This document shows positions 2,755 to 55,451 of a stretch of 64,000 nucleotides of DNA, in pieces; the first letter of the stretch is position 1; each line of letters begins with the position of its first letter. The stretch is from Clostridia bacterium (GTDB lineage Bacteria > Bacillota > Clostridia > Christensenellales > QALW01), in assembly GCA_045591115.1 (NCBI GenBank), contig JAZNSH010000014.1, positions 14,769 through 78,768 of the forward strand, in the 5' to 3' direction. The notes beneath the pieces are model-generated. The model had not been told where the DNA came from. It did no database searches and saw only the letters and a program-made list of their open reading frames with translations. The position numbers and the translations under genes were made by a program.

Positions 2755-3005
2755 AAAAAAATAAACCCGCAAAGATACATTATATCTTCGCGGGATGATC
2801 AACAAATTTTTTGACCACGGTACCACCCGTATTGCTCAAATTTTGAGCCACTCAATAAGGTTCAAACAAACCCTTGTTCTGTTACGGGAACTCCCGAAGC
2901 CTCTTACTGAAATTCCGAGGCCCTGCTCCGATACGAGACAACGAATATACCGCCTATCGTTTTACACCAACCAACGACTCTCTAAAAGCGCAAAATACAT
3001 ACGTT
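2755..3005 (-). promoter_or_regulatory. T-box riboswitch leader (tRNA-sensing antiterminator) upstream of the LeuA-like gene
   Basis: The minus strand carries AGAGAG (2978-2983), GGTGTAAAA, and the T-box sequence AATACGGGTGGTACCGTGG (2815-2828 region). A terminator hairpin CCCGCGAAGATATAATGTATCTTTGCGGG (2766-2794) plus T-run follows, then the RBS AAGGAGG and the ATG at 2740. Tentative specifier CUC (Leu) at 2937-2935. Confidence 0.75.
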
Positions 3006-3161
3006 TAATATCCTCATAGCATTTGCCATTTAATTTTTTTATAATAATATAACAAAATGCCCCATCTGTCAAACGATTTTTATAATATTTTTCTAAAAAT
3101 TTCTCATTTTTTCTATGAATATGAGATAAAAAGTTGTATAATACAAAAAGGAGATGATTTT

Positions 3162-5402: not shown

Positions 5403-6205
5403 AAGTTAATCTCTTTAAAACCGTTTAAAGTAAGAATGCTTCTTTTTTTGAAACCTATTTTTTTAGCCAAAGTTTCGGCATCAGAAAAATAGCAATTCAA
5501 AAAGTCTTTATTGTGGCAATCGCTGGTAAAAATAATTTTGCCGTTTTTATTTTTTATCATCTGTAAAATATTTTCAGATGGATATGGTGTTGTTCTGTAA
5601 CCGCGGGCAATGGCACCGGTATTTATTTCAAAAGGAATATCATATTTAACAAGCTTATTTACGGCATCTTCTGCAAAATACAGATATTTATCGCTTTCTT
5701 TAATATTTTTGCGCTCAAAGTTTTTTGAAATAAGGTCAAAATGCCCGATTATCTGACAGTTTGTTTTATCAACAACCGTTTTTACGTTTTCAAAATATTC
5801 TTCGGCAAACTTAAGAAACTCACCTTTATAAATTTCATTTACAACAAAATCAAACTCTTCCATAGACCCGTCAACGTTATAGAATTTATTATCTTTAATA
5901 ACGTAATGGGTTGAGCCGATAGCATAGTCAAAATAACCGATATCATCATCGGAAATAATATCCTGCTCAATTCCGCAAAGAATTTCGATCTTATCTTTAT
6001 ATTTTTCTTTTAGCGCGGTAATTTCCGAAAAATATTTTTTTGTGTTTTCAGGTGACATACAGTACGAACTTTCCTTCCTTGTATGCCCGTGTCCCGAAAA
6101 TCCCAAATAATCAAAATTAAGTTCAATAGCTTTTAAAACCATTTCTTCGGGAGAATTTTTACCGTCGCAAAAATGAGTGTGTGTATGATAATTTTCTTTT
6201 ATCAT
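5399..6205 (-). CDS. hisJ: Histidinol-phosphatase, PHP (HisJ/HisK) family
   Basis: 268 aa. YHTHTHFCDG N-terminus and GFSGHGH. Located at the end of the his operon and overlaps hisIE by 4 nt. Confidence 0.7.
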   Translation of the reverse strand: MIKENYHTHTHFCDGKNSPEEMVLKAIELNFDYLGFSGHGHTRKESSYCMSPENTKKYFSEITALKEKYKDKIEILCGIEQDIISDDDIGYFDYAIGSTHYVIKDNKFYNVDGSMEEFDFVVNEIYKGEFLKFAEEYFENVKTVVDKTNCQIIGHFDLISKNFERKNIKESDKYLYFAEDAVNKLVKYDIPFEINTGAIARGYRTTPYPSENILQMIKNKNGKIIFTSDCHNKDFLNCYFSDAETLAKKIGFKKRSILTLNGFKEINL

Positions 6206-28254: not shown

Positions 28255-28396
28255 TTTAAGATCAACATCCTTCTAAAAATATTTCTTATATATTATATCA
28301 CTTTTCACCGTTATTTGTCTATAATTTTTTAGCAACATTATAGATACTTATTGTAAGTATCTTCAAACGTAATAGTTTTTGTTACTTTCATTTTTT

Positions 28397-28492
28397 TCAT
28401 TGTAAAACTCTTTTCAAATTACAAAAAATATTGGACACATCGTTTAGGAAAAACCTAAAATAATGTGTCCGCTTTTTTATATTAAAATTATG
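28397..28492 (-). repeat. Repeat family A, copy 1. It carries the conserved-stem terminator hairpin (28431-28470) but lacks the gene-end core.
   Basis: About 90% identical by eye to 29924-30020. The hairpin TTGGACACAT...ATGTGTCC plus a minus-strand T-run sits just after the stop of the FAD oxidoreductase gene. Confidence 0.8.
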
Positions 28493-28520
28493 CAAGAGGT
28501 TAATTCATTTACCAATATTC

Positions 28521-29813
28521 TTATTTTGCATTTGGTAAATAGGCGCCAAGTTCTTTTAATTTTGTTTGTAATTCCTTTATATCTATACTACGAACGTTTG
28601 CATTTTCACAAGCAAGTGCTGCAGCAATTCCTGCCGCTTGTCCCGTAATAAAACACCCCGGCATAACTCGGATTGATGCCTGCATTTTTTGATCGGTACC
28701 AATACACCGCCCCGCCACCAAAGCATTTGATAATGAAACAGGAATCAGGCATCTGTACGGAATACCGTAAGATTCACCTTTTTTGTATTTTAAGCTTTCG
28801 TTATATTCTTTTTCAAAGCGCTCATATTCTTTCTTATCTGTATTCTTAACGTGAATATCAACGGGATAACAATATCGCCCGATTTCATCATCAAAAACAC
28901 TTCTGTTGATAAAATCATCCACATTAAGCATATAATCACAAGTAATTCTGCGAGATTCCCTTACGCCTAAAATCGATGCTGTTGCAAGAAGTTCCATATC
29001 TTCATAACCCTCAAAATACGTTTTAAAATATTTTTCGTATTCAAGCATCATTTTTCTTCCCTTTATCATCGCACCTGACAATGATTTTTCATCCGTAGGG
29101 TCAACATCAAAGGTATGCCCGATATTTCCTCTACCGATTCCCTTTACGTCATAAAAAAAACCAGGAATATGTCTGTCCTCATTGGAAAGCACTCCGTCTT
29201 TATATGCTTTTTCAACAAAAGCGTTTGGTGCATGCTTTACCTTACTCTTATCAATATTTGTCCAAAGACTGCAAAGAGTCTGCGGCATAACTACACCATT
29301 TTCATCGCCCTTTTGAAAATTCGCACCTGCATATGCGCACAAATCACCATCGCCGGTACAATCAATATAAACCTTTGCCTTCACAGAAAACAGACCGCTT
29401 TTCGCGCCAAGAATAACCGCTTCAATTTTATTATCGACAGTTACAACGTCGTAGACCGTTGTAAAAAAAGAAAAATCAACTCCTGCTTCGGTGATTATTC
29501 TATCGTACTCCCTTTTTAGTTCTTCTGCATTTATAGTCGTCCAATAAGAATCAAGGGAAAAATGCTTTGATACATTTTTTCTTATTTCGTATCCAATACC
29601 ACTTGCAAGAACGTTTATGCCGTCATCAAAAGGTGCAAAAGCAGGAACCATACCCGAAGTACCCAATCCACCGAAGCACCCCGTTGACTCTGCAAGGAAT
29701 ACCTTTTTTCCGCACCGTGCCGCCGCTACGCTTGCCGCAATACCCGCCGCACCACCACCGGCAACAAAGACATCGGTTTCATATTTCACAGTAAGATTTT
29801 TAAAAAAATTCAT
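28521..29813 (-). CDS. FAD-dependent oxidoreductase (GIDA/FAD_oxidored-like)
   Basis: The preferred start is the ATG at 29813 (MNFFKNLTVKYETDVFVAGGGAAGIAAS) behind GGAGAG. The track start at 29846 is upstream. Confidence 0.7.
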   Translation of the reverse strand: MNFFKNLTVKYETDVFVAGGGAAGIAASVAAARCGKKVFLAESTGCFGGLGTSGMVPAFAPFDDGINVLASGIGYEIRKNVSKHFSLDSYWTTINAEELKREYDRIITEAGVDFSFFTTVYDVVTVDNKIEAVILGAKSGLFSVKAKVYIDCTGDGDLCAYAGANFQKGDENGVVMPQTLCSLWTNIDKSKVKHAPNAFVEKAYKDGVLSNEDRHIPGFFYDVKGIGRGNIGHTFDVDPTDEKSLSGAMIKGRKMMLEYEKYFKTYFEGYEDMELLATASILGVRESRRITCDYMLNVDDFINRSVFDDEIGRYCYPVDIHVKNTDKKEYERFEKEYNESLKYKKGESYGIPYRCLIPVSLSNALVAGRCIGTDQKMQASIRVMPGCFITGQAAGIAAALACENANVRSIDIKELQTKLKELGAYLPNAK

Positions 29814-29923
29814 TTTTTCTCTCCAGAAATGCATCAAAAATTTCAAAATGAACTATACAAAAGTTAAAATTTTTAATTATTATAACATATTCTTTTTTTT
29901 CTTTCAACACTAAATTTATTGTT

Positions 29924-30129
29924 TTCATTGTGAAACTCTTTTCAAATTACAAAAAATATTGAACACATCGTTTAGGAAAAACCTAAAATGATATGTCCAA
30001 CTTTTTCACATTAAAATTTATGTTTTTTGGATTTTACAATCATCAAATAAAACGCAAAAGTCTTAAAAGCCTTGCAAAATCTTAGCCCTTCATTGCAACT
30101 TCGCAAGCAACTGCAACTGCAACGGACAT
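29924..30129 (-). repeat. Repeat family A, copy 2: hairpin (29959-30000) plus a 65-bp core identical to the stop-proximal end of the GGGtGRT gene
   Basis: 30065-30129 equals 45016-45080 with no mismatch in my alignment. This span covers the stop codon and the last 15 codons. Identity ends abruptly at 30130 (CCCCCCC...). Confidence 0.85.
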
Positions 30130-30178
30130 CCCCCCCAAGTAACACATTATATTTTTTCATTTTTACACAAAAATCAAA

Positions 30179-33526: not shown

Positions 33527-33647
33527 AAAGATGGACACCTCATTAAAGATTTCTCTAAAATGATGTGTCCAATTTTTTATGTTTTAAATTTTATAATAGG
33601 TCTTTTTATTAGCCCTTCATTGCAACGACCCAAGCAACTGCAACTGC
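33527..33647 (-). repeat. Repeat family A, copy 3: hairpin (33532-33571) plus a degenerate 39-bp core
   Basis: 33609-33647, TTAGCCCTTCATTGCAACgacCCAAGCAACTGCAACTGC, differs from 45033-45071 at 3 positions. Confidence 0.8.
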
Positions 33648-33719
33648 TTTTTATATTAAATTCAAATTCACTGTTCTGTATAGCGATTCAAAGATCATTT
33701 GATTACACGATGTATGTTT

Positions 33720-38259: not shown

Positions 38260-40149
38260 ATGAGAAAATTTGTTTCACTATTACTTGCATTCATTTTTTT
38301 GTTTAGCGGAGTACATCTTACCGTTTTTGCTGATAATGAAGAAAACACAAACCTGCTTTCCGAAGCAGATTCCACTTTTGAAAGCGGTGAAACAAACTGG
38401 AATATTTTTACGGCAGGTGAACTCTCCTTTGTTGATAATCCCAAAGGTGAAGGCAAGGTTATGAAGTATCAGGTAGATACCAACGCCTATACCGAAAAAA
38501 AGAATACTTGGCAAAGCTGTATTATTGATCTTAAACCTTTCATAAAGGAAGCAAATACCCTCTATATTGCTATGGACATTTTCTGCGAGGACGCATTTAA
38601 TGTTCAAATTATGATCAGATCCAAGAAAGAGCATCTTGATTTTGCAATGGAAAAGGATAGCGAATACATATGTTTAGGCAATATTTCAGGCGAATCCGAG
38701 TGGGCACACGGTGTGTTCTCTTTTGAAATAACCGATGAGGATATTGAAAGGACCGAGGGCAAGTGGGAGCTTTGCTTTGACCGTTTACCCACTATCCGTA
38801 AAGATCTTGTCATTTACGTTGATAACGTCTATGTTGGCTTTGAGGAGCCTGAAGAACCTGAAAAGGAAATAATTGAACTGCCTGAAATCAATGCAATTAC
38901 AAAGCAAGAAAATACTTTAATCGGTGCAATTCGTTGGGATGCCTACTTTGAAACCGACAGTAAAAAAAGCAACGTTTCACAACAGGTAGCAAAGGCACTT
39001 TCGCCAAGTGAATTTCATTGGCGTGCACCCTTTTTCAGCAACATCGATGATGCAGGCAACGTAACCTTCCCGGGCTATTCACTGGAGATTATTGAAAAGG
39101 AAATTGACTATGCAAAAGCAGGCGGTCTTGATTATTTTGCATATCTTTGGTACGAAACAACCGACCCTATGTCGGACCCCAGAAAACTTCATTTGCAAAG
39201 TGAAAAGAAAAATGATGTTTTGATGTGTGGCATACTTGAAACCATTCGTTCAAAAAAGACGATGAACGAGCTTTTTGAGGCAATGAAGGATGAATGTTAC
39301 GTTAGAATTGATAATCGTCCCGTTGTGTTCTTATATCAATATGATAGCAAGTGGACACAAAAAATGATTGATGAACTTCGTCAGGCTGCTGTTAAAGCCG
39401 GCGTAACGGAAGCACTTTATATAGTTGGTATGATTAGCTCGAAAGATATCATTCTTAATAATGCAAGCATAAAAAATGGAGTGGAAGCATTTTCGTGGTA
39501 TGCAATAGAACCTAAAAAAGCAGGCGGTATCGAATACGTTGAGTTTGCCGATTATTGCAGAAGCAAAACAGAAGAGTTCGGCACAATGTCACGTGCTCGC
39601 GGTTATAGTCTTATACCTTGTGTTTTAACAGGCTATGATATCCGTCCCCGTCTTAAAAATCCCGTTAGCTGGGTAGGTGGCGATATAACAAACCCTGACA
39701 AGTCAAAATGGCCTTACGGCAACAAGTTTACTTTTGATGCTTCACCGGAAGAAATCGGTGAATTATTAAAGTCTACCCTTGATTACGTTAAAGAAAATTC
39801 CAACAACTCAAAGGCAAATATGGTGCTTACTTATGCTTGGAACGAGCACGATGAAGGCGGTTGGATTTGCCCCACCGTAAAATGCGATGAAAACGGCAAC
39901 GTTATTTATAATGAGGATGGCACAGTACAAGTAGATACTCAGCGTATTGATGCTTACAGAAAAGTAATTGATGCTTACAGAGAGATCGAGCATACTGAAA
40001 TTACACCTTCCCCTGAAGCAACCGCACAACCTATTGATGACGAAATTACGCCCCAAAATAATATTTTGACTTATATTATATCAGGTGTATTAGTGTTAGC
40101 CGTTGCCATCGGTATAATCGTTGTAGTTATAGTAAAAAAGAAAAAATAA
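38260..40149 (+). CDS. Uncharacterised surface-anchored paralog: signal peptide, extra N-terminal CBM-like domain, the shared catalytic-like domain, a Pro/Glu linker and a C-terminal TM anchor
   Basis: 629 aa. Signal peptide MRKFVSLLLAFIFLFSGVHLTVFA; C-terminus ILTYIISGVLVLAVAIGIIVVVIVKKKK. Confidence 0.5.
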   Translation: MRKFVSLLLAFIFLFSGVHLTVFADNEENTNLLSEADSTFESGETNWNIFTAGELSFVDNPKGEGKVMKYQVDTNAYTEKKNTWQSCIIDLKPFIKEANTLYIAMDIFCEDAFNVQIMIRSKKEHLDFAMEKDSEYICLGNISGESEWAHGVFSFEITDEDIERTEGKWELCFDRLPTIRKDLVIYVDNVYVGFEEPEEPEKEIIELPEINAITKQENTLIGAIRWDAYFETDSKKSNVSQQVAKALSPSEFHWRAPFFSNIDDAGNVTFPGYSLEIIEKEIDYAKAGGLDYFAYLWYETTDPMSDPRKLHLQSEKKNDVLMCGILETIRSKKTMNELFEAMKDECYVRIDNRPVVFLYQYDSKWTQKMIDELRQAAVKAGVTEALYIVGMISSKDIILNNASIKNGVEAFSWYAIEPKKAGGIEYVEFADYCRSKTEEFGTMSRARGYSLIPCVLTGYDIRPRLKNPVSWVGGDITNPDKSKWPYGNKFTFDASPEEIGELLKSTLDYVKENSNNSKANMVLTYAWNEHDEGGWICPTVKCDENGNVIYNEDGTVQVDTQRIDAYRKVIDAYREIEHTEITPSPEATAQPIDDEITPQNNILTYIISGVLVLAVAIGIIVVVIVKKKK

Positions 40150-40165: not shown

Positions 40166-40396
40166 ACCGCGGAAAGATCCGCGGTCAGTCTGCTGGCAAA
40201 GTCAGCAGACTGTCAGAGTTCGAGAAACCCTTGCAAGCCAAGGCGCTGAACTTGCAAAAAAGGGAGTTTACATAGACGTAAATGACCGCATTTTGCAAGT
40301 GAAATGCAACGACGGAAATAGCACCCTGCAAAAATTTTGCAGGGTGCTATGTTTGTAAGGGTTTGTCAGTGCTCTGACCGCGGAAAGATCCGCGGT
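40166..40396 (+). mobile_element. Element B copy 1: a 191-bp non-coding insertion (40186-40376) flanked by a duplicated 20-bp terminator stem-loop
   Basis: ACCGCGGAAAGATCCGCGGT occurs at 40166-40185 and again at 40377-40396; only the second copy is followed by the T-tract. The insert is near-identical to 57558-57748. Confidence 0.8.
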
Positions 40397-40435
40397 ATTT
40401 TTTAGTTCACATTTATTCAAAGGTCTGAAAACTTT

Positions 40436-40873
40436 TTATTTCATTGCAACTTCGCAAGCAACTGCAACTGCAACGGACATACCAACCATGGGGTTGTTAC
40501 CTGCGCCGATTAAGCCCATCTTCTCAACGTGAGCAGGAACTGAAGATGAACCTGCAAACTGAGCGTCACCGTGCATACGGCCCATTGTATCGGTCATACC
40601 GTAGGAAGCGGGACCTGCAGCAGCGTTATCGGGGTGAAGTGTTCTGCCTGTGCCGCCACCGGAAGCAACTGAGAAATACTTAACACCGTTTTCGATAGCC
40701 CACTTCTTATAGGTACCTGCAACGAAAGGCTTTTCTTTACCCTGAATAGGTGTAATATTATAAAGCCAATTCTTGATAGGTGCAGAGAAGTCAAGACCAA
40801 GGAAACGCGCACGCTTCATTTCAGGTGCAAAGCTGGGTACGTTTGTTGCAGCAATACCGCCTTCGCCCTGCAT
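40436..40873 (-). pseudogene. Displaced 3' fragment of a GGGtGRT-family gene fused to unrelated upstream sequence (chimeric ORF)
   Basis: 40440-40734 aligns to 45040-45334 at a constant offset of 4600, with 8 mismatches in 295 bp and no indels. The region upstream of VAGTYKKW has no similarity to the intact protein. Confidence 0.8.
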
Positions 40874-44894: not shown

Positions 44895-45032
44895 AAATAA
44901 AAAAATATTGGACACATCACAAGCGGAAATACGTTTATGATGTGTCCAACTTTTTAATTTATGATTTTGGGCGAAATGAGAATTTCGATGATTTCTAAAA
45001 ATCAAGAAAGCCTCAAAAAGCCTTGCAAAATC
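44895..45032 (-). terminator. Repeat family A, copy 4: the native 3' UTR and Rho-independent terminator (hairpin 44908-44949) of the GGGtGRT gene
   Basis: TTGGACACATCA-loop-TGATGTGTCCAA with a T-run on the minus strand. Homologous to copies 1-3. Confidence 0.8.
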
Positions 45033-46034
45033 TTAGCCCTTCATTGCAACTTCGCAAGCAACTGCAACTGCAACGGACATACCAACCATGGGGTTGTTAC
45101 CTGCGCCGATTAAGCCCATCATCTCTACGTGAGCAGGAACTGAAGATGAGCCTGCAAACTGAGCGTCACCGTGCATACGACCCATTGTATCGGTCATACC
45201 GTAGGATGCGGGACCTGCAGCAGCGTTATCGGGGTGAAGTGTTCTGCCTGTGCCGCCACCGGAAGCAACTGAGAAATACTTAACACCGTTCTCAATAGCC
45301 CACTTCTTGTAGGTACCTGCAACGGGATGCTGGAAACGTGTGGGGTTAGTTGAGTTACCGGTAATGGAAACACCAACGTTTTCTTTTCTCATAATAGCAA
45401 CGCCTTCAGAAACGTCGTTAGCGCCATAGCACTTAACCTTTGCTCTGTCGCCTGTTGAGAAAGCCTTTTCATATACAGTTTCAAGCTCGCCTGTATAGTA
45501 ATCATACTTTGTTTCAACATAAGTGAAGCCGTTGATTCTTGAAATGATATAAGCGGCATCCTTACCTAAACCGTTAAGAATAACGCGAAGAGGATTCTTA
45601 CGAACCTTATTTGCGTTAAGAGCGATCTTAATTGCGCCTTCAGCAGCAGCAAAGCTTTCGTGACCTGCAAGGAAGCAGAAGCACTCTGTTTCTTCACTTA
45701 AAAGCATTGATGCAAGGTTACCGTGACCAAGACCAACCTTTCTCTGATCGGCAACTGATCCGGGGATACAGAAAGCCTGAAGTGCTACACCGATTTCCTT
45801 TGCGGCATCAGCAGCAGTTTTGCAACCTTTTTTAAGTGCAAGAGCAGCACCTAAAGTATATGCCCAGCAAGCATTCTCAAATGCGATGGGCTGAGTTTCT
45901 CTAACGATTGTTTCAGCGTCAACGCCCTTACTAAGAGCGAATTCCTTTGCTTCATCAAGATCCTTAAAGCCATACTCCTTAAGGACAACGTTGATCTGAT
46001 CAATTCTTCTTGAATAACTTTCAAAATTTGCCAT
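45033..46034 (-). CDS. GGGtGRT-family conserved protein of unknown function
   Basis: 333 aa. Contains the name-giving SGGGTGRT motif (VASGGGTGRTLHPDN). Confidence 0.8.
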   Translation of the reverse strand: MANFESYSRRIDQINVVLKEYGFKDLDEAKEFALSKGVDAETIVRETQPIAFENACWAYTLGAALALKKGCKTAADAAKEIGVALQAFCIPGSVADQRKVGLGHGNLASMLLSEETECFCFLAGHESFAAAEGAIKIALNANKVRKNPLRVILNGLGKDAAYIISRINGFTYVETKYDYYTGELETVYEKAFSTGDRAKVKCYGANDVSEGVAIMRKENVGVSITGNSTNPTRFQHPVAGTYKKWAIENGVKYFSVASGGGTGRTLHPDNAAAGPASYGMTDTMGRMHGDAQFAGSSSVPAHVEMMGLIGAGNNPMVGMSVAVAVACEVAMKG

Positions 46035-47746: not shown

Positions 47747-49591
47747 TTATTTAATTTTCAACCAAGCAGCGCAACGTGACTCATCCGTCCATGTTTTGCC
47801 TGCTGAAGCATAATCAATAAGCCTTACCTTTTCACCTGATTCAAGAGGAACCTCAAAACATATATGTGCTTCTTTTATTTCGGGGCAATAAACTTCTTTA
47901 CCCTCAACATAACCGTTCTCATCACAAGCGATCTGAAGAACACTGTCAGGATCACAGATACGCTTATCAGCCGCTAAAACGAGAGGTCCAAACATATAGG
48001 CTGCAAATTCATCTGCATTAACTTGATCAGCATCAGGGAGGATTCGCTTAATCTGCATTTCAAGATCAACAAAGATCTCATCACCGTTTTTCCAGATATT
48101 ATTTAATTTAAAGTAGCCTTTTTCAGCCTTATTGTTATTCACATAAGCATTATCGCACCATTCAGGAATTCTGACACAAATATCAAAATTTTCTTCCTTT
48201 TCAAGTTCAAGTGCTAATTTGATTTTACCATTATAGGGATATTCTGTATCCATCGTAATCTTCAGATCTTTTCCTGAAGGTGTTTTTGTTGTTATCTCGC
48301 CTTTTTCATAATAGTTAATTGTGATACCGTTTTTATTTTTCATTAAAGCGATTTCGGGAATAACGCCCGCGCCTGCCGCACCGATGCAAGCACAACAACC
48401 GTAGAATGTTTTATCGGGGAAAGAGTTGTAACCACCGGTCTGTCTGCCGCGTCTGTCGGCAACAAGAGGTGCATAACTGTCATAAGGCAATACCTGAGGC
48501 ACATCCCCATTACCACGCTGGAATGTTGCACGCTCAGTATTAAATGCACCCATATAGGCATTATAGAATGACTGTTCAATTTTATCTGCATAGATACTTT
48601 CCCCTGAAAGTTCAAGCAATGCAGAGGCAAATTTCATCCAGGTAACGGTAACGCAGGTTTCTTGGATAATACCTTCATAATCGGTTTGTGTCTGTCTTAC
48701 TCGCGTATGGTCAAAAAGCTCGTGAGTGCAACCGCTGCAACCGATAATACTTAATTCTTCCTTGATAATATTCTTGCCTAAATTAAGAAGGGCGGTTTTA
48801 TGCTTTTCGATGCCTGTAAGATAATAATACTGCAACAAGCCTTCAAAGCAGGACATCATCTCATAAGCCTTAACAACGGGGAACTTATGAGGTGCAATGT
48901 CTTTATAAGCAAGCTCGATAATATTATCCGACTGAATAAATCCCGTTGAAATAATATATTCGGCAAATTCAAGATATTTTTTATTGTTTGTAAGGCGGTA
49001 TAAGCGCACGATAGGCTCTAAGATTGAGCAGGAATTCATACCCTCCCAATTTTTTGAGCAGGTGCGGATATCAAGCTTATTCTCCCCTATACGCTCAATA
49101 ATGTAATCTGCCTGACGGCACATTGAAGCAATAAGCTCTTTGTTAAGCTCATCATCCTTGGAGATTTCCATAAAATACATCATACCGAGCATAACGTATT
49201 TTCTGCCCCAAAGATCCCAACGCTGAAATTCTTCTTCAACAGAATATCCCGAAATTCTGCCTAAATCATCTTCGGCTGTAAGCATATCGCGAACGCTGTC
49301 TTCAAGAATTCTATACATATCTTCATCACGGGTATAGCGCACTACCATTGAAGCTCCGCGCATCATTTTACCCCAATATTCGCTTCGCCAACTTACCCAA
49401 ACTTCGCCACAACCATCTTTTCCCCAACGAAAAAGATCAACGAACTTTCTCCATAAACCGACCTCACATATCTGATTGCGCTCTGCAAATCTAACTGCTT
49501 CTTTTAATAAGCCATCGAAATTCATTAAAATTTCGCTTTCTTTATTAAGCACGCGTAAATTATCAATCTCTTTAACTTTTTTGTTTACCAT
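47747..49591 (-). CDS. DUF1680 / GH127-like glycoside hydrolase (beta-L-arabinofuranosidase family)
   Basis: The preferred start is the ATG at 49591 (MVNKKVKEID) behind GGAGG. (alpha/alpha)6-like N-terminal half, a Cys-rich FYGCCACIGAAG segment and a beta-rich C-terminus. Confidence 0.5.
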   Translation of the reverse strand: MVNKKVKEIDNLRVLNKESEILMNFDGLLKEAVRFAERNQICEVGLWRKFVDLFRWGKDGCGEVWVSWRSEYWGKMMRGASMVVRYTRDEDMYRILEDSVRDMLTAEDDLGRISGYSVEEEFQRWDLWGRKYVMLGMMYFMEISKDDELNKELIASMCRQADYIIERIGENKLDIRTCSKNWEGMNSCSILEPIVRLYRLTNNKKYLEFAEYIISTGFIQSDNIIELAYKDIAPHKFPVVKAYEMMSCFEGLLQYYYLTGIEKHKTALLNLGKNIIKEELSIIGCSGCTHELFDHTRVRQTQTDYEGIIQETCVTVTWMKFASALLELSGESIYADKIEQSFYNAYMGAFNTERATFQRGNGDVPQVLPYDSYAPLVADRRGRQTGGYNSFPDKTFYGCCACIGAAGAGVIPEIALMKNKNGITINYYEKGEITTKTPSGKDLKITMDTEYPYNGKIKLALELEKEENFDICVRIPEWCDNAYVNNNKAEKGYFKLNNIWKNGDEIFVDLEMQIKRILPDADQVNADEFAAYMFGPLVLAADKRICDPDSVLQIACDENGYVEGKEVYCPEIKEAHICFEVPLESGEKVRLIDYASAGKTWTDESRCAAWLKIK

Positions 49592-49667
49592 ATCAAAAAA
49601 CCTCCGCAAAACAAGTTCCTGATAGATTATACAAAAATTTTTCTCATTTGTCTATAGCAAAACGAAA

Positions 49668-51509
49668 TTAATATTTAAAAATTACGGATGAGCGTTTTTC
49701 ATTTAAAACAATATTAAGCGTTTTTGTTTTCATTTTTTCGCACGTGTCAAGATTCAAAATTTCATATTCTTTTTCAAAATCAACGCAAAAAGTATCAAAG
49801 GGCGAATTTTCGCGACGGAAAGCCATAATAATTCCTTCATCTTTTTCATCATCGTGGAATCGCCACACCGTCCAAGACGTCATATCTAATACATCAGATG
49901 CTAAATTGTAAAAGTTTTTGGAAAAAAATTTTCGAATAGATTTATATTCTTCCAAAATTTCAGAAACGGAATCAAGTTCAGAATCTGTCATATTCTGAAA
50001 ATATGCGTTATAGAATGCACCGCCAAAGCTTGAAGAATATGCACTTCTTACAGAGTATTTATCGTGCATTTTCGTTGTGCAACCAAGAAGTGGAAAATAC
50101 TTCTGTGCCCCTGAATTATGCACCTGCAAAACTTCTGCGGTAAGGTTAAATTCGCACTGATAATCACTGCGAAAGAAAACTATGGCACGTTTAAGCATTT
50201 CAATATCAATTCGTCTGCCTCCCGAAGAACAGTTGTCAATTAAGAGGTGCGGATATTTTTGATGGAGTTCATCAAAAAGGCGGTACACACCCATTATATG
50301 CTTAATTTCTGTAATACCTTGTCTGTTTTCTTCATCATTTTTTTCAAAATAATCTGTGAGTTTTACATTAAAGTCCTGGCGGTAGCAAGCCATATTAAAT
50401 TTTTCAACGTAGGATGAAATCAAATCAAACACATACTTATATGCTTCTTCAATGCCGTAATAGACAATAAAATTATTATTTTCATCAGATTTCAAAAGCC
50501 ATTCAGGGTGTTCTTTTACAATAGGCACATCAGGACAAGCGCGTTCAGGCTCCAGCCAAAACATAAGCGGTGCACCCATTTCTTTTGCTGTATCGGCAAC
50601 GTCTTTTAATCCATTTGGGTGTACTTTAAGATTGACATTCCACTCCCCCGTATGGCCGGACCAATCGCCATTAAAAGGATCGATACAGTTTTCACATTGT
50701 CCATACCAGCCTGCATCTATCCACGTCTGTTCAAACTTAACGTTATGCTTTTTTAATCGTGCCATTCGGTTAAGCATTTCTTCTGTTGGAAGTCCGCCCC
50801 AAAGTTCATAGGCACATAGTCCTTCCGGTTCTTCGTTTTTAATGTGTGAATAATGCTTATAAAAAAGTTTTCTGAACTTATTAAAATGATCCTCACCTTT
50901 TTCGTAATTCATAATCAAAGTTGAGGACGTGCGCACTTTTTCGCCTTTTTTAAGATAAAAGTGAGTTTTTGATAATCCGGTTGTAACAAGCACACCATCG
51001 TTACACTCTAAAAACTCGGCTTTCCACGATCCCGTCCAACCGATTGCAACCATTGCGCCACATTCATCTGCACAAACATCAAAAAATGGCATCATAACGT
51101 CACTTGAACGTGCACCGAGATTTTCAAAAGTCTTTTTTTGACCTTTTCTTAAAAACTCCTGATGGCGTGAAAATTCAGTTGCACTTAATGTATCGTTTTC
51201 AGTATAAGCGTAGCCATCAACCATACCTGCCATCGTAAAAACGCTTCTTGATTTTTTTGGTGGAATATATGCAGTTGTGGTGCTTTCAATTTGGGGAAGT
51301 TCTATTACATAATTGCAATCGGAAATATCTGAAATAATATCAGTATCTTCTTCACCGATATTTTCAAAATACAACAGCCACTCTTTTGCAGAAAACTCAC
51401 TATATTCCTTTAATTCAAGGGTTACAAGAAGATTGTCTATATTAAGCTTATTATTTTTAAAATCTTTTAAAGAATATTCTCTGTTTCCGTAATTAAATTT
51501 AAAATCCAT
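49668..51509 (-). CDS. GH36-family alpha-galactosidase-like glycoside hydrolase
   Basis: 613 aa. WIDAGWY, YRQDFN and DNCSSGGRRID motifs, corresponding to the GH36 KWD and CxxGGGR regions. Confidence 0.6.
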   Translation of the reverse strand: MDFKFNYGNREYSLKDFKNNKLNIDNLLVTLELKEYSEFSAKEWLLYFENIGEEDTDIISDISDCNYVIELPQIESTTTAYIPPKKSRSVFTMAGMVDGYAYTENDTLSATEFSRHQEFLRKGQKKTFENLGARSSDVMMPFFDVCADECGAMVAIGWTGSWKAEFLECNDGVLVTTGLSKTHFYLKKGEKVRTSSTLIMNYEKGEDHFNKFRKLFYKHYSHIKNEEPEGLCAYELWGGLPTEEMLNRMARLKKHNVKFEQTWIDAGWYGQCENCIDPFNGDWSGHTGEWNVNLKVHPNGLKDVADTAKEMGAPLMFWLEPERACPDVPIVKEHPEWLLKSDENNNFIVYYGIEEAYKYVFDLISSYVEKFNMACYRQDFNVKLTDYFEKNDEENRQGITEIKHIMGVYRLFDELHQKYPHLLIDNCSSGGRRIDIEMLKRAIVFFRSDYQCEFNLTAEVLQVHNSGAQKYFPLLGCTTKMHDKYSVRSAYSSSFGGAFYNAYFQNMTDSELDSVSEILEEYKSIRKFFSKNFYNLASDVLDMTSWTVWRFHDDEKDEGIIMAFRRENSPFDTFCVDFEKEYEILNLDTCEKMKTKTLNIVLNEKRSSVIFKY

Positions 51510-51657
51510 TTTCTACCTCACACAAGACAAATTAAAACAAGTTGTTCCGCTGATAACACCTATCAACTGAATAAGTCTGATTTTTCTCAAAACAAAAAAT
51601 TAAAATATTGAGCACAGACCAAGAGCAATTTCATTTATCAACGAAAAAAGCTCTGTT

Positions 51658-52614
51658 TTAATTTACTATATTAGTTGGTTTTTTGTCTAAATACGCTTTA
51701 ACATTATTAATGGCAAAGGTCGCAAGCCTCTGTCTGCCCTCAACAGCAGTCCAGCTTATATGCGGAGTAATAAAACAATTCCTTGCTTTTAGCAATGGAT
51801 TATCTTCACTGATCGGTTCATTGCGCACTGCATCAAGGCCTGCCGCATAGATTTTACCACTATTTAAAGCATCTGCCAAAGCCTGCTCATCAATCAATGC
51901 TCCGCGACTGTTATTGATAAGGATGACACCGTCCTTCATTTTCGCAATAGATTGAGCGTTTATCATATTTTCTGTTTCAGGAAATAAAGGACAATGAAGC
52001 GATATAACATCGGATTTATCAAGCAACTCATCTAAATCGCAATATTTGAAAGTATCGCTTACTAAATCTGCATTTTTAAAAGTATCATATGCTAACACTT
52101 TCATTCCAAAGGCTTGCGCACCTCTTGCCATTATCTGACCGATTCTGCCTGCTCCTATTATACCCATAGTCTTATTTTCAAGCTCAATTGAAGGATAATC
52201 CCAAAAACACCAATCCTCAGGTCCTGCTTTTCTCAGCTTTCTAACCTCGGCATCGTGATAGCCTACGTGATTTGTAATTTCCATAAGCAATGCAAACGCG
52301 TGTTGACCGATACCTTCCGTGCCATAGGAAGGTACGTTAGCAACGGGAATATTCATTTCTTTTGCCGCAACAACATCAACTGTATTGTAGCCTGTTGCAA
52401 TAACAGAAATAAATTTTAAGTTTTTGCATTTCTCTAAAATTTCTCTTGTAAGATTTGATTTGTTTAAAAGCACAATATCGGCATCTTCAATATGCTCTAA
52501 TATTTCATTTTGAGGCACGCGGTCATTCATTTCAACGTCGCCCAATTCATAAAGTGCAGACCAATCAATTTCTCCGGGATTTTCGCGTGGTTTATCTAAA
52601 ACTACTATTTTCAT
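51658..52614 (-). CDS. D-isomer-specific 2-hydroxyacid dehydrogenase (glycerate dehydrogenase / hydroxypyruvate reductase type)
   Basis: 318 aa. GIIGAGRIGQ NAD-binding site and the NNSRG...D...PHISW catalytic region. Confidence 0.8.
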   Translation of the reverse strand: MKIVVLDKPRENPGEIDWSALYELGDVEMNDRVPQNEILEHIEDADIVLLNKSNLTREILEKCKNLKFISVIATGYNTVDVVAAKEMNIPVANVPSYGTEGIGQHAFALLMEITNHVGYHDAEVRKLRKAGPEDWCFWDYPSIELENKTMGIIGAGRIGQIMARGAQAFGMKVLAYDTFKNADLVSDTFKYCDLDELLDKSDVISLHCPLFPETENMINAQSIAKMKDGVILINNSRGALIDEQALADALNSGKIYAAGLDAVRNEPISEDNPLLKARNCFITPHISWTAVEGRQRLATFAINNVKAYLDKKPTNIVN

Positions 52615-52619
52615 AATAT

Positions 52620-53384
52620 TTACTCCATTTCTGCTAATGAATCAAATACTTGATTATAGCCTCTTAAAAATAATACGTTATCGGTACAAGCCCAAAGTAC
52701 GTTAGCCCCCATCTCTCTGTATTTTTTAGAAAGAATTTCATCATCGCAGAATATACCGCAAGACATATTGTAATCTTTACAGATATCAAAAACCTTTTGA
52801 ACGGCAGCAATCATAACTTCGCTTCTAATCTGGAACGGTGTTCCGAGCATAACTGACATATCGTAAGGCCCTATCATAATAGCAGCAATTTCATCACCGT
52901 ACTTTTCTAAAATTTGCGGAAGAATATCTATACCGGGCTGAGATTCAATCTGAACGAAAAGATAGCGACTCTTTTGGAAGCCTTCATAGCCTTCTCCTTT
53001 ACGGAACTGACCGTGTCCGCCACAGCCTGTTCTTCCAACAGGGGCAAAACGAAGCGATTCGACTGCTTCCTGCACTTGTTCCAAGGTTTCAGTTCTTGGA
53101 AGCATAATACCATCCGCACCCAAATCAATAGCTCGGGCGATCAAGTGATATTTGCAATCGGGAATACGCACAAAAGACGGAAGTCCAATAAGACGGCAAA
53201 CCTGCAAAGCAGGGATAAGATTTTCATTATTAAATATACCGTGTTCAGCATCAAAAAGAATGAAATCCAAATCATCACGATTCATTTTTTCAATAATGAG
53301 TGGACTGTTTATCATTGACATTGTTGTGCCGAGAACCTTTTCTCTTTTGGCTAATTTTTGCTCTAAAATTTCATACTTGCTCAT
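52620..53384 (-). CDS. HpcH/HpaI family aldolase (2-keto-3-deoxy-acid aldolase type)
   Basis: 254 aa. DFILFDAEHG, VRIP and GADGIMLPR motifs. Confidence 0.75.
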   Translation of the reverse strand: MSKYEILEQKLAKREKVLGTTMSMINSPLIIEKMNRDDLDFILFDAEHGIFNNENLIPALQVCRLIGLPSFVRIPDCKYHLIARAIDLGADGIMLPRTETLEQVQEAVESLRFAPVGRTGCGGHGQFRKGEGYEGFQKSRYLFVQIESQPGIDILPQILEKYGDEIAAIMIGPYDMSVMLGTPFQIRSEVMIAAVQKVFDICKDYNMSCGIFCDDEILSKKYREMGANVLWACTDNVLFLRGYNQVFDSLAEME

Positions 53385-53408
53385 TGTTGTTTACTCCTTG
53401 ATATCTTT

Positions 53409-54398
53409 TTATTTTTGAAGATCGAGCCATAAGACCTCTTCGGTACTCAATTCAATATCTGCTGCTGCAACATTTTCTTTTATTTGTTTTTCGTTCACAG
53501 GGCTTGTAAGCAAAAACGTATTAAGCGGATTATTAAAAATCCAAGCTAAAGCAATCTGAGCAACGCTTACGTTCTTCTTTTCTGCTAATATTTCCGCTCT
53601 TTTCAATCTTTCTAAATTACTTTCACAGAAATAACCTTTAATTCCCGCTTCATCAAGTATCTGTTTTGCTTTTTGAGGTTCATTACTCTTAAACGCCCCT
53701 GAGAAGAACCCTCTGGCTAAAGCAGAGTAAGCAAAAACAGGTATATTATTATCAAGATACCATTTTCTTGCGTCTTTGTTTTCAGGTCCCGATAGTGTAA
53801 CGCACTGTCCAACCCAGGGGTTGTTCACTTGCTCAGCAAGGCCAAAGTTAGGACTTGACACAGTAAATGGAATAAGATTATGTTTAGCCGCATATTCATT
53901 AGCTTCTTCAATCCGTTGATGTGTCCAGTTAGAGCCACCGAAAGCACCGATTTTACCTTCATCAAAAAGTCGATTCATAGTATCTACAATAATGCACACA
54001 GGAACATCCGGATTATCACGATGAAGCATATAAATGTCTATATAATCTGTTCGCAATTTTTTTAGCGCATTATGTATATCGTAAAGAATATCAAAATCTG
54101 TTACGCGATCACGCCATTTATTAGGATGTGCACATTTTGAAAATATAACTGTTTTATCCCTAATCTCCCTAAGTTCTATCCATTCGCCTAAAATTTCTTC
54201 TCCATAATGGTCGGAGCAATCAAAACAATTTATTCCGTTTTTAAATACGTCATCCAAAAGTTTGAAAGCCTTTTGCCTACACTCTTCAACGTCCGGGCGT
54301 TCTGTTTCAATAGCATCAAATAATATGGGCGTTGCCGTTCCAAAAACTATTGGTGAAATCATTTTTTTAACATATGGTATTTTTTTATAATTCATCAC
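53409..54398 (-). CDS. Aldo/keto reductase
   Basis: 329 aa. DCSDHYGE, DIYMLHRD and LAWI motifs. Confidence 0.8.
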   Translation of the reverse strand: MMNYKKIPYVKKMISPIVFGTATPILFDAIETERPDVEECRQKAFKLLDDVFKNGINCFDCSDHYGEEILGEWIELREIRDKTVIFSKCAHPNKWRDRVTDFDILYDIHNALKKLRTDYIDIYMLHRDNPDVPVCIIVDTMNRLFDEGKIGAFGGSNWTHQRIEEANEYAAKHNLIPFTVSSPNFGLAEQVNNPWVGQCVTLSGPENKDARKWYLDNNIPVFAYSALARGFFSGAFKSNEPQKAKQILDEAGIKGYFCESNLERLKRAEILAEKKNVSVAQIALAWIFNNPLNTFLLTSPVNEKQIKENVAAADIELSTEEVLWLDLQK

Positions 54399-54455
54399 TA
54401 AAACCCTTTCTATAATATTAAGTTTACTATTGAATTCTAAAGCAATATCGTAATG

Positions 54456-55451
54456 CTATACCTCTATCATGCTTTTTGTTTTAAGTTTAAATTCTGTATA
54501 TGAATTCTTTTCGATCTGCTGATCTTTTAAAATATTCATACATAAACCGTGAAAGGCAAAATATGCTTGTCCTGAAATATTTTGATCAATAGTCATATCA
54601 ATAATGTTATCAGAAAAATATTGATTAAGTTCTTTAAAAGTATCTGTGCATACAAGCGTTATATTTTTCTGTTTTTTTCTCAAAAATTCGCACAGAGAAA
54701 GAGAATTTCCGCTTGTTATATAGATACCGTCAATATCGTCAGTTATAAGTTTTTCCACGTTTTCTTCTAAATATTTTTCGTCATCTCGCATATCAAAAAC
54801 GCCTTTAATGTTAAATTTGCTCTTCTCTAAAAAAACTTCTTTTGCATTTAAGTGGAGATAACTTTCTTGATTACCCGTAAAAAGAAAAACGTTTTTACAC
54901 TTGGCTGAAAAAAGAAAATCAGATGCACACTCTGCCGCAAGACACTCATTATGCTTTGATGCAAAAAGATATGGTATTTCCTCATTTACTGTCTGCAAAA
55001 AAACAAGTTTTGGAATTTCAAATTTTTTTAGCGTTTCAGCAAAACGTTTATCGCCCATACCTGAAATTATTATACCGTCAAATTTTTCAAACTTTAGCAA
55101 AGCTTTTTCCAAGTCTTTTTCTGCATCAGCATTGCGAAGGGCATCAATAGCAATTACTTCATAGTAAATTTTGTAATCATAAAGATTAAAAAACGCTTCT
55201 TTAAATCCTGCTATCATTTCTTCTTCAATGCGCTTTGTTCTTGATACGAGAATGCAACCAATTTTAATTTCACCTTTACTCATTCTTGAAGCAAACTTAT
55301 TTGGTGCAAAATTATATTTTTGAGCAAGTTCAATTACTTTTTTTCGCTTATCTTCGCTGACTTTGCCTTTTTCAGAAAGTGCTCTACTCACCATCGAAGG
55401 TGTGTATCCAAGTTCTTCTGCAATAGAATATATCGTTACTTTTTTATCCAT
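54456..55451 (-). CDS. LacI family transcriptional regulator
   Basis: 331 aa. The N-terminal HTH VTIYSIAEELGYTPSMVSRAL. Confidence 0.85.
   Translation of the reverse strand: MDKKVTIYSIAEELGYTPSMVSRALSEKGKVSEDKRKKVIELAQKYNFAPNKFASRMSKGEIKIGCILVSRTKRIEEEMIAGFKEAFFNLYDYKIYYEVIAIDALRNADAEKDLEKALLKFEKFDGIIISGMGDKRFAETLKKFEIPKLVFLQTVNEEIPYLFASKHNECLAAECASDFLFSAKCKNVFLFTGNQESYLHLNAKEVFLEKSKFNIKGVFDMRDDEKYLEENVEKLITDDIDGIYITSGNSLSLCEFLRKKQKNITLVCTDTFKELNQYFSDNIIDMTIDQNISGQAYFAFHGLCMNILKDQQIEKNSYTEFKLKTKSMIEV

Follow-up and report, generated by a model that had tools for sequence, protein, structure and literature searches.

How did one and the same terminator hairpin come to stand on both sides of a short piece of non-coding DNA? 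This question is raised by a 64,000-nt stretch of contig JAZNSH010000014.1 from a Clostridia bacterium (assembly GCA_045591115.1, positions 14,769 to 78,768 of the forward strand; we call this whole stretch the window), in which a 191-bp non-coding element occurs twice. Copy 1 sits between identical hairpins of 20 bp (ACCGCGGAAAGATCCGCGGT), and copy 2 sits between identical hairpins of 27 bp (AAGGCAGATGCAAAAAGCATCTGCCTT); the coordinates are in Table 1. Only the distal hairpin of each pair is followed by a T-tract (ATTTTTT at copy 1 and TTTTTT at copy 2), as an initial annotation of the window had stated, and its coordinates and sequences for both copies were exact when we re-read the window. 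The inserts have 15 differences (92.1% identity), of which 9 lie within one internal hairpin. There are no other copies in the window (0 matches were expected by chance). [quoted passage not shown]

Evidence for an insertion comes from related genomes. There was no exact record of the window's own flanking proteins, and we reached sister genomes through homologs. In one metagenome-assembled genome (MAG; GCA_054288805.1, our L026), whose GTP-dependent PEP carboxykinase (PEPCK) is 97% identical to that of the window, the 27-bp hairpin of copy 2 is present once and the T-tract follows directly. In another (GCA_053312615.1, our L034), whose homolog of the 629-aa gene upstream of copy 1 is 94% identical, the 20-bp hairpin is present once and the element is absent; its flanks match the window over the ~85 bp that were read on each side, single-base differences aside. 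At the PEPCK locus of L021 there is an orthologous single hairpin with changes, and L020 and L025 have a different single hairpin. Both duplications in the window are genuine target-site duplications. Because exact single-hairpin empty sites exist for both copies, the element is an insertion and not something that lay within a pre-existing tandem terminator. The initial annotation had called the element inserted and had named empty sites in sister strains as a check; these sites bear it out at both copies and remove the tandem-terminator scenario. (We also considered a paralogous empty site for copy 1 beside a full-length GGGtGRT-family gene in the window, and rejected it: what is duplicated there is the coding 3' end only, and the terminator is excluded.)

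The window is not the only place where the element occurs. The exact pattern of its 33-nt 5' end, searched against 185,579 species genomes, identified 19 loci in three MAGs that are named "Clostridia bacterium," all of them with the miniature form. A profile search of those loci added more divergent, long, and truncated copies, and a peptide tag from an open reading frame (ORF) within the element, searched against 5.8 billion proteins, gave a single match, which is one further copy on an ENA contig. This makes 27 copies or fragments from the window, four MAGs, and the ENA contig. A hairpin abuts the 5' end in 22 of the 23 copies whose 5' junction is visible (the exception is a 5'-truncated relic), and a hairpin follows the 3' end in all 15 copies whose 3' junction is visible. 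Given that there are just ~41 strand-specific terminator-like sites in the 64-kb window by a loose criterion, 22 of 23 such junctions cannot be due to chance adjacency. Where both junctions are visible, the same hairpin, of 20-29 bp, stands on both sides in 11 of 12 copies, which was the outcome that the initial annotation had proposed to look for in additional copies.

The length of the duplication is not fixed. Exact duplications of 20, 22, 23, 25, 26, and 27 bp occur across the family, and near-exact ones range from 22 to ~29 bp, with a mismatch, an indel in the loop, or (in L019) a flipped loop. The earlier claim that the duplication tracks the target hairpin, which was made from two copies, holds for the family as well. 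Every duplication runs 5'-A...T-3' and ends 1-3 bp past the last G:C pair of the stem, and the landing point is the 3' foot of a GC-rich stem-loop, ahead of the T-tract. This geometry recurs at 11 independent sites with different hairpins. The target sequences are mutually unrelated, the left flanks have only their final T in common, and the targets lie behind unrelated genes (i.e., those for PEPCK, a WbsX-like protein, rpoC, RF-1, a fucosidase, a serine dehydratase, and others). Subfamilies of 83-98% identity co-exist within one genome, which indicates repeated bursts of activity. Two scans of JGI metagenomes found no element (0 matches); among viral contigs there were 0 matches and then 7 chance matches that fail the element profile; and among plasmids and phages, neither the whole element nor the insert of the long variants had a match, and the ends alone gave noise only.

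How might such insertions arise? A transposase supplied in trans would recognise the ends of the element, which carry the motif CAGnnnnCTGACAAA, and would join them to the target hairpin by two strand transfers, one at each foot and each on a different strand. The feet are 20-29 bp apart in linear DNA and would come together where an extruded cruciform has its four-way junction. Gap repair would then copy the whole hairpin, so the duplication would be as long as the hairpin rather than a fixed number of base pairs, and on this model it would stop close to the end of the stable G:C stem. Targeting by structure at a hairpin's foot had been suggested from the two copies of the window, and it is still the best fit, given the unrelated targets and the A...T ends just outside the last G:C pair. 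Since the closest documented behaviour is that of IS1630, an insertion sequence (IS) of the IS30 family, an IS30-type DDE enzyme would be the leading candidate for the mobiliser. The element is small and non-coding, its dispersed copies are present in some genomes and absent from the same sites in others, and it duplicates its target, all of which are features of MITEs. Two further features of MITEs are not apparent: there are no clear terminal inverted repeats, and we found no cognate parent IS.

The ends of the element (CAGTCTGCTGACAAAG and CAGAGCACTGACAAAC) are sharply defined and constant in all copies, and most of what lies between them is folded. There are three occurrences of the motif CAGnnnnCTGACAAA: two, back to back, make up the terminal hairpin H1, and the third is inverted and lies at the 3' end. 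A long closing stem (P2, or helix 2, with 22 pairs) starts 28 nt inside the 5' end and encloses a central hairpin domain and the internal hairpin Hv (helix 7), which is terminator-like on the + strand by the loose criterion. The + strand of copy 1 is predicted to fold with -98.7 kcal/mol (z = -11.7), and if both flanking hairpins are included in the in-silico fold, the duplicated palindromes pair mutually and a single rod can result (-134.5 kcal/mol, z = -14.0). Among 11 complete copies, the paired cells amount to 99.0%, and 8 pairs have double compensatory changes, of which 5 are among the 15 pairs of Hv (which is 100% paired) and 2 are in P2. The covariation score is 0.114, as compared to 0.052 in shuffles (0 of 500 reach 0.114) and 0.007-0.021 if the pairing partners are slid.

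This covariation has to be read with care. The loop of H1 is found in both orientations among the copies (ACAAAGT and ACTTTGT), and in the flanks of L019 (the 259-449 region) the loop is flipped between the two copies of the duplication, TTTTT versus AAAAA. Loop flips are a signature of intrastrand template switching in DNA palindromes (quasipalindrome mutagenesis), which also copies changes from one arm to the other. These flips indicate template switching at the level of DNA. Because template switching also yields compensatory changes, covariation does not prove selection on an RNA; the compensatory pattern shows that the hairpins are maintained.

Nothing in the element looks like a gene. 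Its ORFs encode only 27-75 aa and have no homologs, if a spurious call on a further element copy is set aside; there is no promoter-like site within it; and no Rfam family reaches its gathering score in the whole window (scanned for copy 1 in its own right as well) or in the long variant, apart from one family that concerns another part of the window and is mentioned below. The best sub-threshold match was group-II-D1D4-1 (13.5 bits, with a threshold of 35), which we regard as noise, and we reject the identification as a group II intron. We also considered that Hv might capture target terminators or guide the targeting, and rejected this, as Hv does not resemble the target at which its own copy sits.

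Some copies are longer. In L009, L008, L001, and L015, the apical loop of the central domain contains a structured non-coding insert of ~280 bp (L009 3725-4020, L008 ~1-204, L001 ~5645-5752, and L015 ~1-201) in place of AAGTGA. This insert has its own 24-bp inverted ends (ATACTATAGCGCRCGCAAAGGAGT), has no match in Rfam or among plasmids, and may be another small mobile element that is nested in the first. On the ENA metagenome contig, L035 ~404-529 (read on the minus strand) has a third type of internal insert, likewise structured and non-coding, of ~125 bp, after nt 54 of the element, and in the divergent copy L008 2759-2947 the central stem is replaced by a different self-complementary sequence. 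There are also remnants. L018 7779-7923 (minus strand) is a degenerate relative with neither a 5' hairpin nor a duplication on its flanks, and it starts immediately behind a stop codon. Its internal hairpin, again compensated, is of yet another version (AATCCCCGAAAAC...GTTTTCGGGGATT), and the sequence may represent either an ancestral form or a copy that was immobilised long ago. L004 ~200-262 and L015 1201-1265 consist of Hv and the 3' arm only, directly after gene ends or stop codons, which suggests occasional reuse as terminators. The free-standing Hv look-alike in L004 is a relic copy, because the similarity extends into the 3' arm of the element.

Several observations do not sit well with a transposase that acts on a cruciform. 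First, the terminal inverted repeats are poor: the ends have only an imperfect CAGnnnnCTGACAAA in common (10-11 of 15 positions), and for this reason recognition of the ends by a classic transposase is unproven. Second, the boundaries are not always clean. At 5 of 8 sites the palindrome could extend past the duplication; at L007 the duplication is off-centre and covers 22 bp of a 30-bp palindrome; and L001 and L035 are flanked by hairpins that do not match. The mismatched flanks of L001 are likely to be an assembly chimera or the product of recombination between copies, as its downstream hairpin matches the upstream hairpin of L010. (Copies of the element break MAG assemblies and can yield chimeric joins, as in L001 and L035.) Third, the element is not symmetric. 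The fold of the + strand is more stable than that of the - strand by 20 kcal/mol (-98.7 as compared to -79 kcal/mol), and three G:U pairs are fixed on the + strand while no A:C pair is fixed, which hints at a single-stranded intermediate or at selection at the RNA level. Also, at least 14 copies are sense to the gene that is terminated at the site, while ~4 are antisense only (p ~0.03), and a symmetric cruciform target does not predict such a bias. Neither the strand asymmetry of the fold nor the off-centre duplication of L007 is predicted by the cruciform model.

Fourth, the enzyme is missing. There is no transposase or recombinase among the 51 ORFs that were screened in the window and 20 ORFs beside copies in the MAG loci, and no IS-like architecture (inverted repeats that enclose an ORF) in 228 kb. 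The initial annotation had proposed to look for an autonomous relative that encodes a protein; no longer coding relative with the same 33-nt 5' end turned up in the 185,579 species genomes, and none in the 228 kb. Metagenome, viral, plasmid, and phage collections contained no cognate autonomous IS either, but these searches needed near-exact ends, so a diverged parent could escape them. In particular, there is no IS30-type gene among the 71 ORFs that were screened. Because there is no transposase in the window or beside other copies, we describe the element as non-autonomous. One candidate for a coding element with hairpin duplication, a ~57-bp direct repeat around a 441-aa ORF (28405-29990), was rejected: the product of the ORF is an FAD-dependent oxidoreductase, and the repeat is an intergenic module that recurs.

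What else could explain the geometry? One possibility, which we put forward tentatively and do not expect to be right, is that the enzyme is of a new or unrecognised kind that reads the shape of DNA and attacks the four-way junction of the terminator cruciform. The architecture of the element would then be part of the mechanism: the terminal hairpin built from two end motifs, the long closing stem, and the flanking palindromes, which turn into perfect inverted repeats, could together form a junction-like substrate. The covariation and strand asymmetry of the fold would then mean that the element also works as an RNA in the 3' untranslated regions (UTRs) that it creates.

We think it unlikely that the element moves as a single strand, but because the orientation bias, the asymmetry of the fold, and the off-centre duplication of L007 are not predicted by the cruciform model, this idea stays alive. 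An HUH-type enzyme (similar to the TnpA of IS200/IS605 or to RAYT) or another enzyme specific for single-stranded DNA would recognise the folded H1, Hv, and target hairpin, for example on the lagging-strand template, and would insert one strand at the 3' foot of the hairpin. The far greater stability of the + strand and its fixed G:U (or G:T) pairs would fit; insertion is always on the 3' side of the hairpin; and the hairpins at or near both ends recall the subterminal hairpins of IS200/IS605. Furthermore, genes are co-oriented with replication in Firmicutes, and the orientation bias could reflect the direction of replication. On the other hand, elements of the IS200/IS605 and REP/RAYT types do not duplicate their target and insert 3' of a conserved tetra- or pentanucleotide, while here the empty sites prove a duplication of 20-29 bp and the left flanks have only the terminal T in common. 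We know of no single-strand pathway that copies or duplicates a whole target hairpin. Also, there is no Y1/HUH gene among the ORFs of the window or of the MAG loci that were screened.

A doubtful alternative is that the element is a functional structured RNA module (a 3'-UTR stabiliser, an insulator of terminators, or a small RNA) that spread because it benefits the host, with mobility being secondary. The extreme folding of the element and of the whole unit, the pairing and covariation, and the strand asymmetry of the G:U pairs all fit with this. So do the majority of copies that are sense to the upstream gene, the survival of 3' relics exactly where a terminator is needed (L004 and L015 1201-1265), and the tolerance of copies behind essential genes such as rpoC. 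Nevertheless, the element lacks its own promoter, ~4 copies run antisense to the gene that is terminated at the site, the sister genomes do without it at the same sites, and there is no matching Rfam family. The loop flips in H1 and in the flank of L019 reflect template switching in DNA, which gives compensatory changes without any selection on RNA. Above all, an RNA function leaves the insertion geometry unexplained, and it is compatible with the element being a transposon.

It is quite improbable that the element is a retro-element or the product of a template switch during replication, in which a read-through RNA or a nascent DNA strand would be copied into a new terminator. The initial annotation had suggested this, and the idea has some appeal, as the insertions are at terminators (which group IIC introns also target) and the element is probably transcribed by read-through. 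But a copied read-through transcript would carry the hairpin of the donor, and the empty sites show that the flanking hairpins belong to the target. In addition, all copies have the same sharp ends, the Rfam search gave no signature of an intron, a reverse transcriptase, or a retron, and, rare relics aside, there is no poly-A or pattern of variable 5' truncation. Finally, although tandem terminators do exist, we give practically no credence to 191 bp having landed between the two hairpins of one, or to an assembly artefact, as both are refuted by the exact empty sites; the lack of tandem identical hairpins (which would be excision footprints) anywhere in 228 kb and the same geometry at 11 independent sites count against them as well.

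That leaves a terminator-specific MITE as the reading that we prefer, and there is a precedent for its behaviour. The initial annotation knew of no bacterial IS or MITE family that acts in this way, which is wrong as far as IS are concerned. Calcutt et al. reportedly stated in an abstract of 1999 that the targets of IS1630 are rho-independent terminators. IS1630 of Mycoplasma fermentans makes variable duplications, of 19-26 bp, of the inverted repeats of terminators (PMC2853133). In strain M64 it has 27-bp inverted ends and duplicated junctions of 16, 23, 25, and 26 bp (PMC3317919), and ISMhom-1 from M. hominis is described as behaving similarly (PMC7648426). Like these two IS, the 191-bp element targets terminator hairpins or inverted repeats that lie downstream of genes and vary in length and sequence, and the whole repeat is duplicated; the range is 20-29 bp, as compared to 19-26 bp for IS1630 (16-26 bp in M64). 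The differences are that IS1630 is an autonomous IS of 1.2-1.4 kb with an IS30-type transposase and 27-bp terminal inverted repeats, while the element from Clostridia is a 191-bp non-coding sequence with poor terminal repeats and an elaborate conserved fold, in a gut host. As neither an IS30-type gene nor a matching IS was found, it is unproven that the element descends from a member of the IS30 family.

Other elements resemble ours in some respects. IS1272 of staphylococci (IS1182 family) targets inverted repeats of 22-30 bp just downstream of genes, and because these differ in sequence, its recognition of them appears to be structural (PMC5678879). The 191-bp element also targets inverted-repeat structures behind genes, but IS1272 is described there as replacing the target inverted repeat without duplication (PMC5678879), while here the hairpin is kept and duplicated. 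Classical MITEs (i.e., RUP, BOX, Correia/NEMIS, and ERIC) and SPRITE are small, folded, and multi-copy, are enriched downstream of genes or between convergent genes, and are co-transcribed with their neighbours, as two papers describe (PMC3049150 and PMC10969869). For SPRITE, no target duplication could be established, by the account in the first of these (PMC3049150), and the second, a 2024 review of MITEs, does not mention IS30 (PMC10969869). Like these elements, ours is small, non-coding, highly folded, and multi-copy, and it is found at the 3' ends of genes. Unlike them, it duplicates a whole terminator hairpin, which is unreported for classical MITEs; theirs are short fixed duplications (such as TA), or none are known.

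Group IIC introns, IS200/IS605, and REP/RAYT elements also choose stem-loops (terminators among them) or positions next to them as insertion sites, and they depend on single-stranded hairpins. They do not duplicate the target, which the 191-bp element does; it also lacks the ribozyme domains of group IIC introns (there is no Rfam match) and the conserved short target sequence of IS200/IS605. A mechanistic analogy, and only that, is spacer integration in CRISPR arrays, where Cas1-Cas2 makes staggered transfers at both borders of a partly palindromic repeat and the entire repeat is duplicated around the inserted DNA. However, spacers are short and have no specific ends, the length of the repeat is fixed for each system, and nothing ties the 191-bp element to Cas1. 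Overall, duplication of a hairpin is rare behaviour with a precedent in IS1630, and as far as we could find, there is no report of it for a miniature element.

Table 1. Positions of the two element copies, their parts, and the adjoining genes (numbered from the first letter of the window).
Feature	Position	Strand	Details
Proximal target hairpin, copy 1	40166..40185	.	ACCGCGGAAAGATCCGCGGT; stem 8 bp, loop 4 nt; + strand T-tract lost
Element copy 1, non-coding	40186..40376	+	191 bp; 5'-CAGTCTGCTG...GTCAGTGCTCTG-3'
H1, terminal hairpin (helix 1)	40186..40212	+	27 nt, 12-bp stem; two CAGnnnnCTGACAAA motifs back to back; 98.5% paired
P2, 5' arm of long closing stem	40214..40237	+	CAGAGTTCGAGAAACCCTTGCAAG; pairs with 40353-40376
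Central hairpin domain	40238..40317	+	apical loop tolerates large inserts
Hv, internal hairpin	40318..40350	+	15-bp hairpin, then TGTTTGTA; lower stem hypervariable, in fully compensated versions
P2, 3' arm, and 3' terminus	40353..40376	+	TTGTAAGGGTTTGTCAGTGCTCTG; third terminal motif, inverted
Distal target hairpin, copy 1, with original T-tract	40377..40396 and 40397..40403	.	functional + strand terminator
Proximal target hairpin, copy 2	57531..57557	.	AAGGCAGATGCAAAAAGCATCTGCCTT, 27 bp; no T-tract
Element copy 2	57558..57748	+	191 bp; Hv at 57690-57722, version CAAACCCC
Distal target hairpin, copy 2, with T-tract	57749..57781	.	hairpin at 57749-57775
629-aa gene, WbsX-like glycosyltransferase domain	38260..40149	+	its terminator is the target of copy 1
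145-aa ORF, convergent, downstream of copy 1	40436..40873	-	fragment (C-terminal third) of GGGtGRT protein
GTP-dependent PEPCK gene	55750..57525	+	its terminator is the target of copy 2

The surroundings of the two copies have some features of their own. A second bidirectional terminator hairpin (AAAACACCTGAAAAATCAGGTGTTTT, 57792-57817) lies 17 bp past the distal hairpin of copy 2 and is unoccupied; it is also found in the empty-site genome L026. As compared to sister genomes, the window has an extra block of ~8 kb (47747-55451) between BacA and PEPCK, which encodes a GH127 protein, a melibiase, a dehydrogenase, an aldolase, an aldo-keto reductase, and a LacI regulator. In L021, L022, and L026, BacA directly precedes PEPCK, while L020 shares part of the block. 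Downstream of copy 1, the 145-aa ORF is a paralog of the full GGGtGRT gene (45033-46034). Pieces of the 3' end of this gene recur three times (~30062-30135, ~33609-33650, and 40436-40730, the last being ~290 bp and 97% identical), and each adjoins a different sugar-utilisation cassette. It would seem that gene cassettes were inserted one after another at the 3' end of a single gene, with a long target duplication each time. The intergenic module mentioned above is ~90 bp long and occurs at 28395-28490, 29923-30020, and 44905-44960, with no transposase involved. It holds a long terminator hairpin (GGACACAT...ATGTGTCC) and a T-tract, and two of its copies bracket the gene for the FAD-dependent oxidoreductase (28521-29846). 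Farther away, there is a T-box leader (RF00230, 105.7 bits) at 2788-3026 on the - strand, upstream of a LeuA-like gene (1376-2740).

What would an insertion do to transcription? An intrinsic terminator hairpin without its U-tract terminates poorly. Because the first hairpin loses its U-tract, transcription of the upstream gene would probably continue across the element and end at Hv or at the second hairpin. The initial annotation had proposed that the element is probably transcribed as a 3'-UTR extension of the upstream gene. To judge from gene positions, this is plausible for at least 14 copies, in which an ORF on the strand of the element ends just before hairpin 1, and it does not apply to the ~4 copies that are antisense to the sole gene that is terminated there. 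At copy 1, the proximal hairpin retains its upstream A-tract and scores as a complete - strand terminator, while the distal one scores as complete on the + strand; a bidirectional terminator has thus been split into two unidirectional ones. As a consequence, the convergent transcript from the - strand should run antisense through the element to hairpin 1, and the two transcripts would have overlapping 3' ends. Also, a direct repeat of a palindrome is an inverted repeat as well, so each insertion gains perfect, site-specific terminal inverted repeats.

Duplication of a target over the length of a hairpin has reportedly been known since IS1630 (1999). The element from Clostridia shows that this behaviour is not confined to Mollicutes and that it also exists in a non-autonomous form. 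To our knowledge, it has not been worked out how a transposase places strand transfers 16-29 bp apart at the edges of arbitrary palindromes. The element is short (191 bp) and multi-copy, its empty sites are clean, and it has many natural targets, which makes it a simple substrate for in vitro and in vivo tests of the mechanism.

For the bacteria that carry it, each insertion cuts the hairpin of a terminator off from the U-tract and lengthens the 3' end of a gene by ~210-220 nt of highly stable structure. The affected genes include rpoC, a prfA-like gene, and genes of central metabolism, and effects on read-through, on the stability of mRNA, and on antisense interference are plausible and measurable. 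If the mobiliser were indeed a new kind of enzyme that reads DNA shape, then this lineage of gut Clostridia would harbour a selfish element that rewrites, in a systematic way, the 3' ends of its housekeeping genes.

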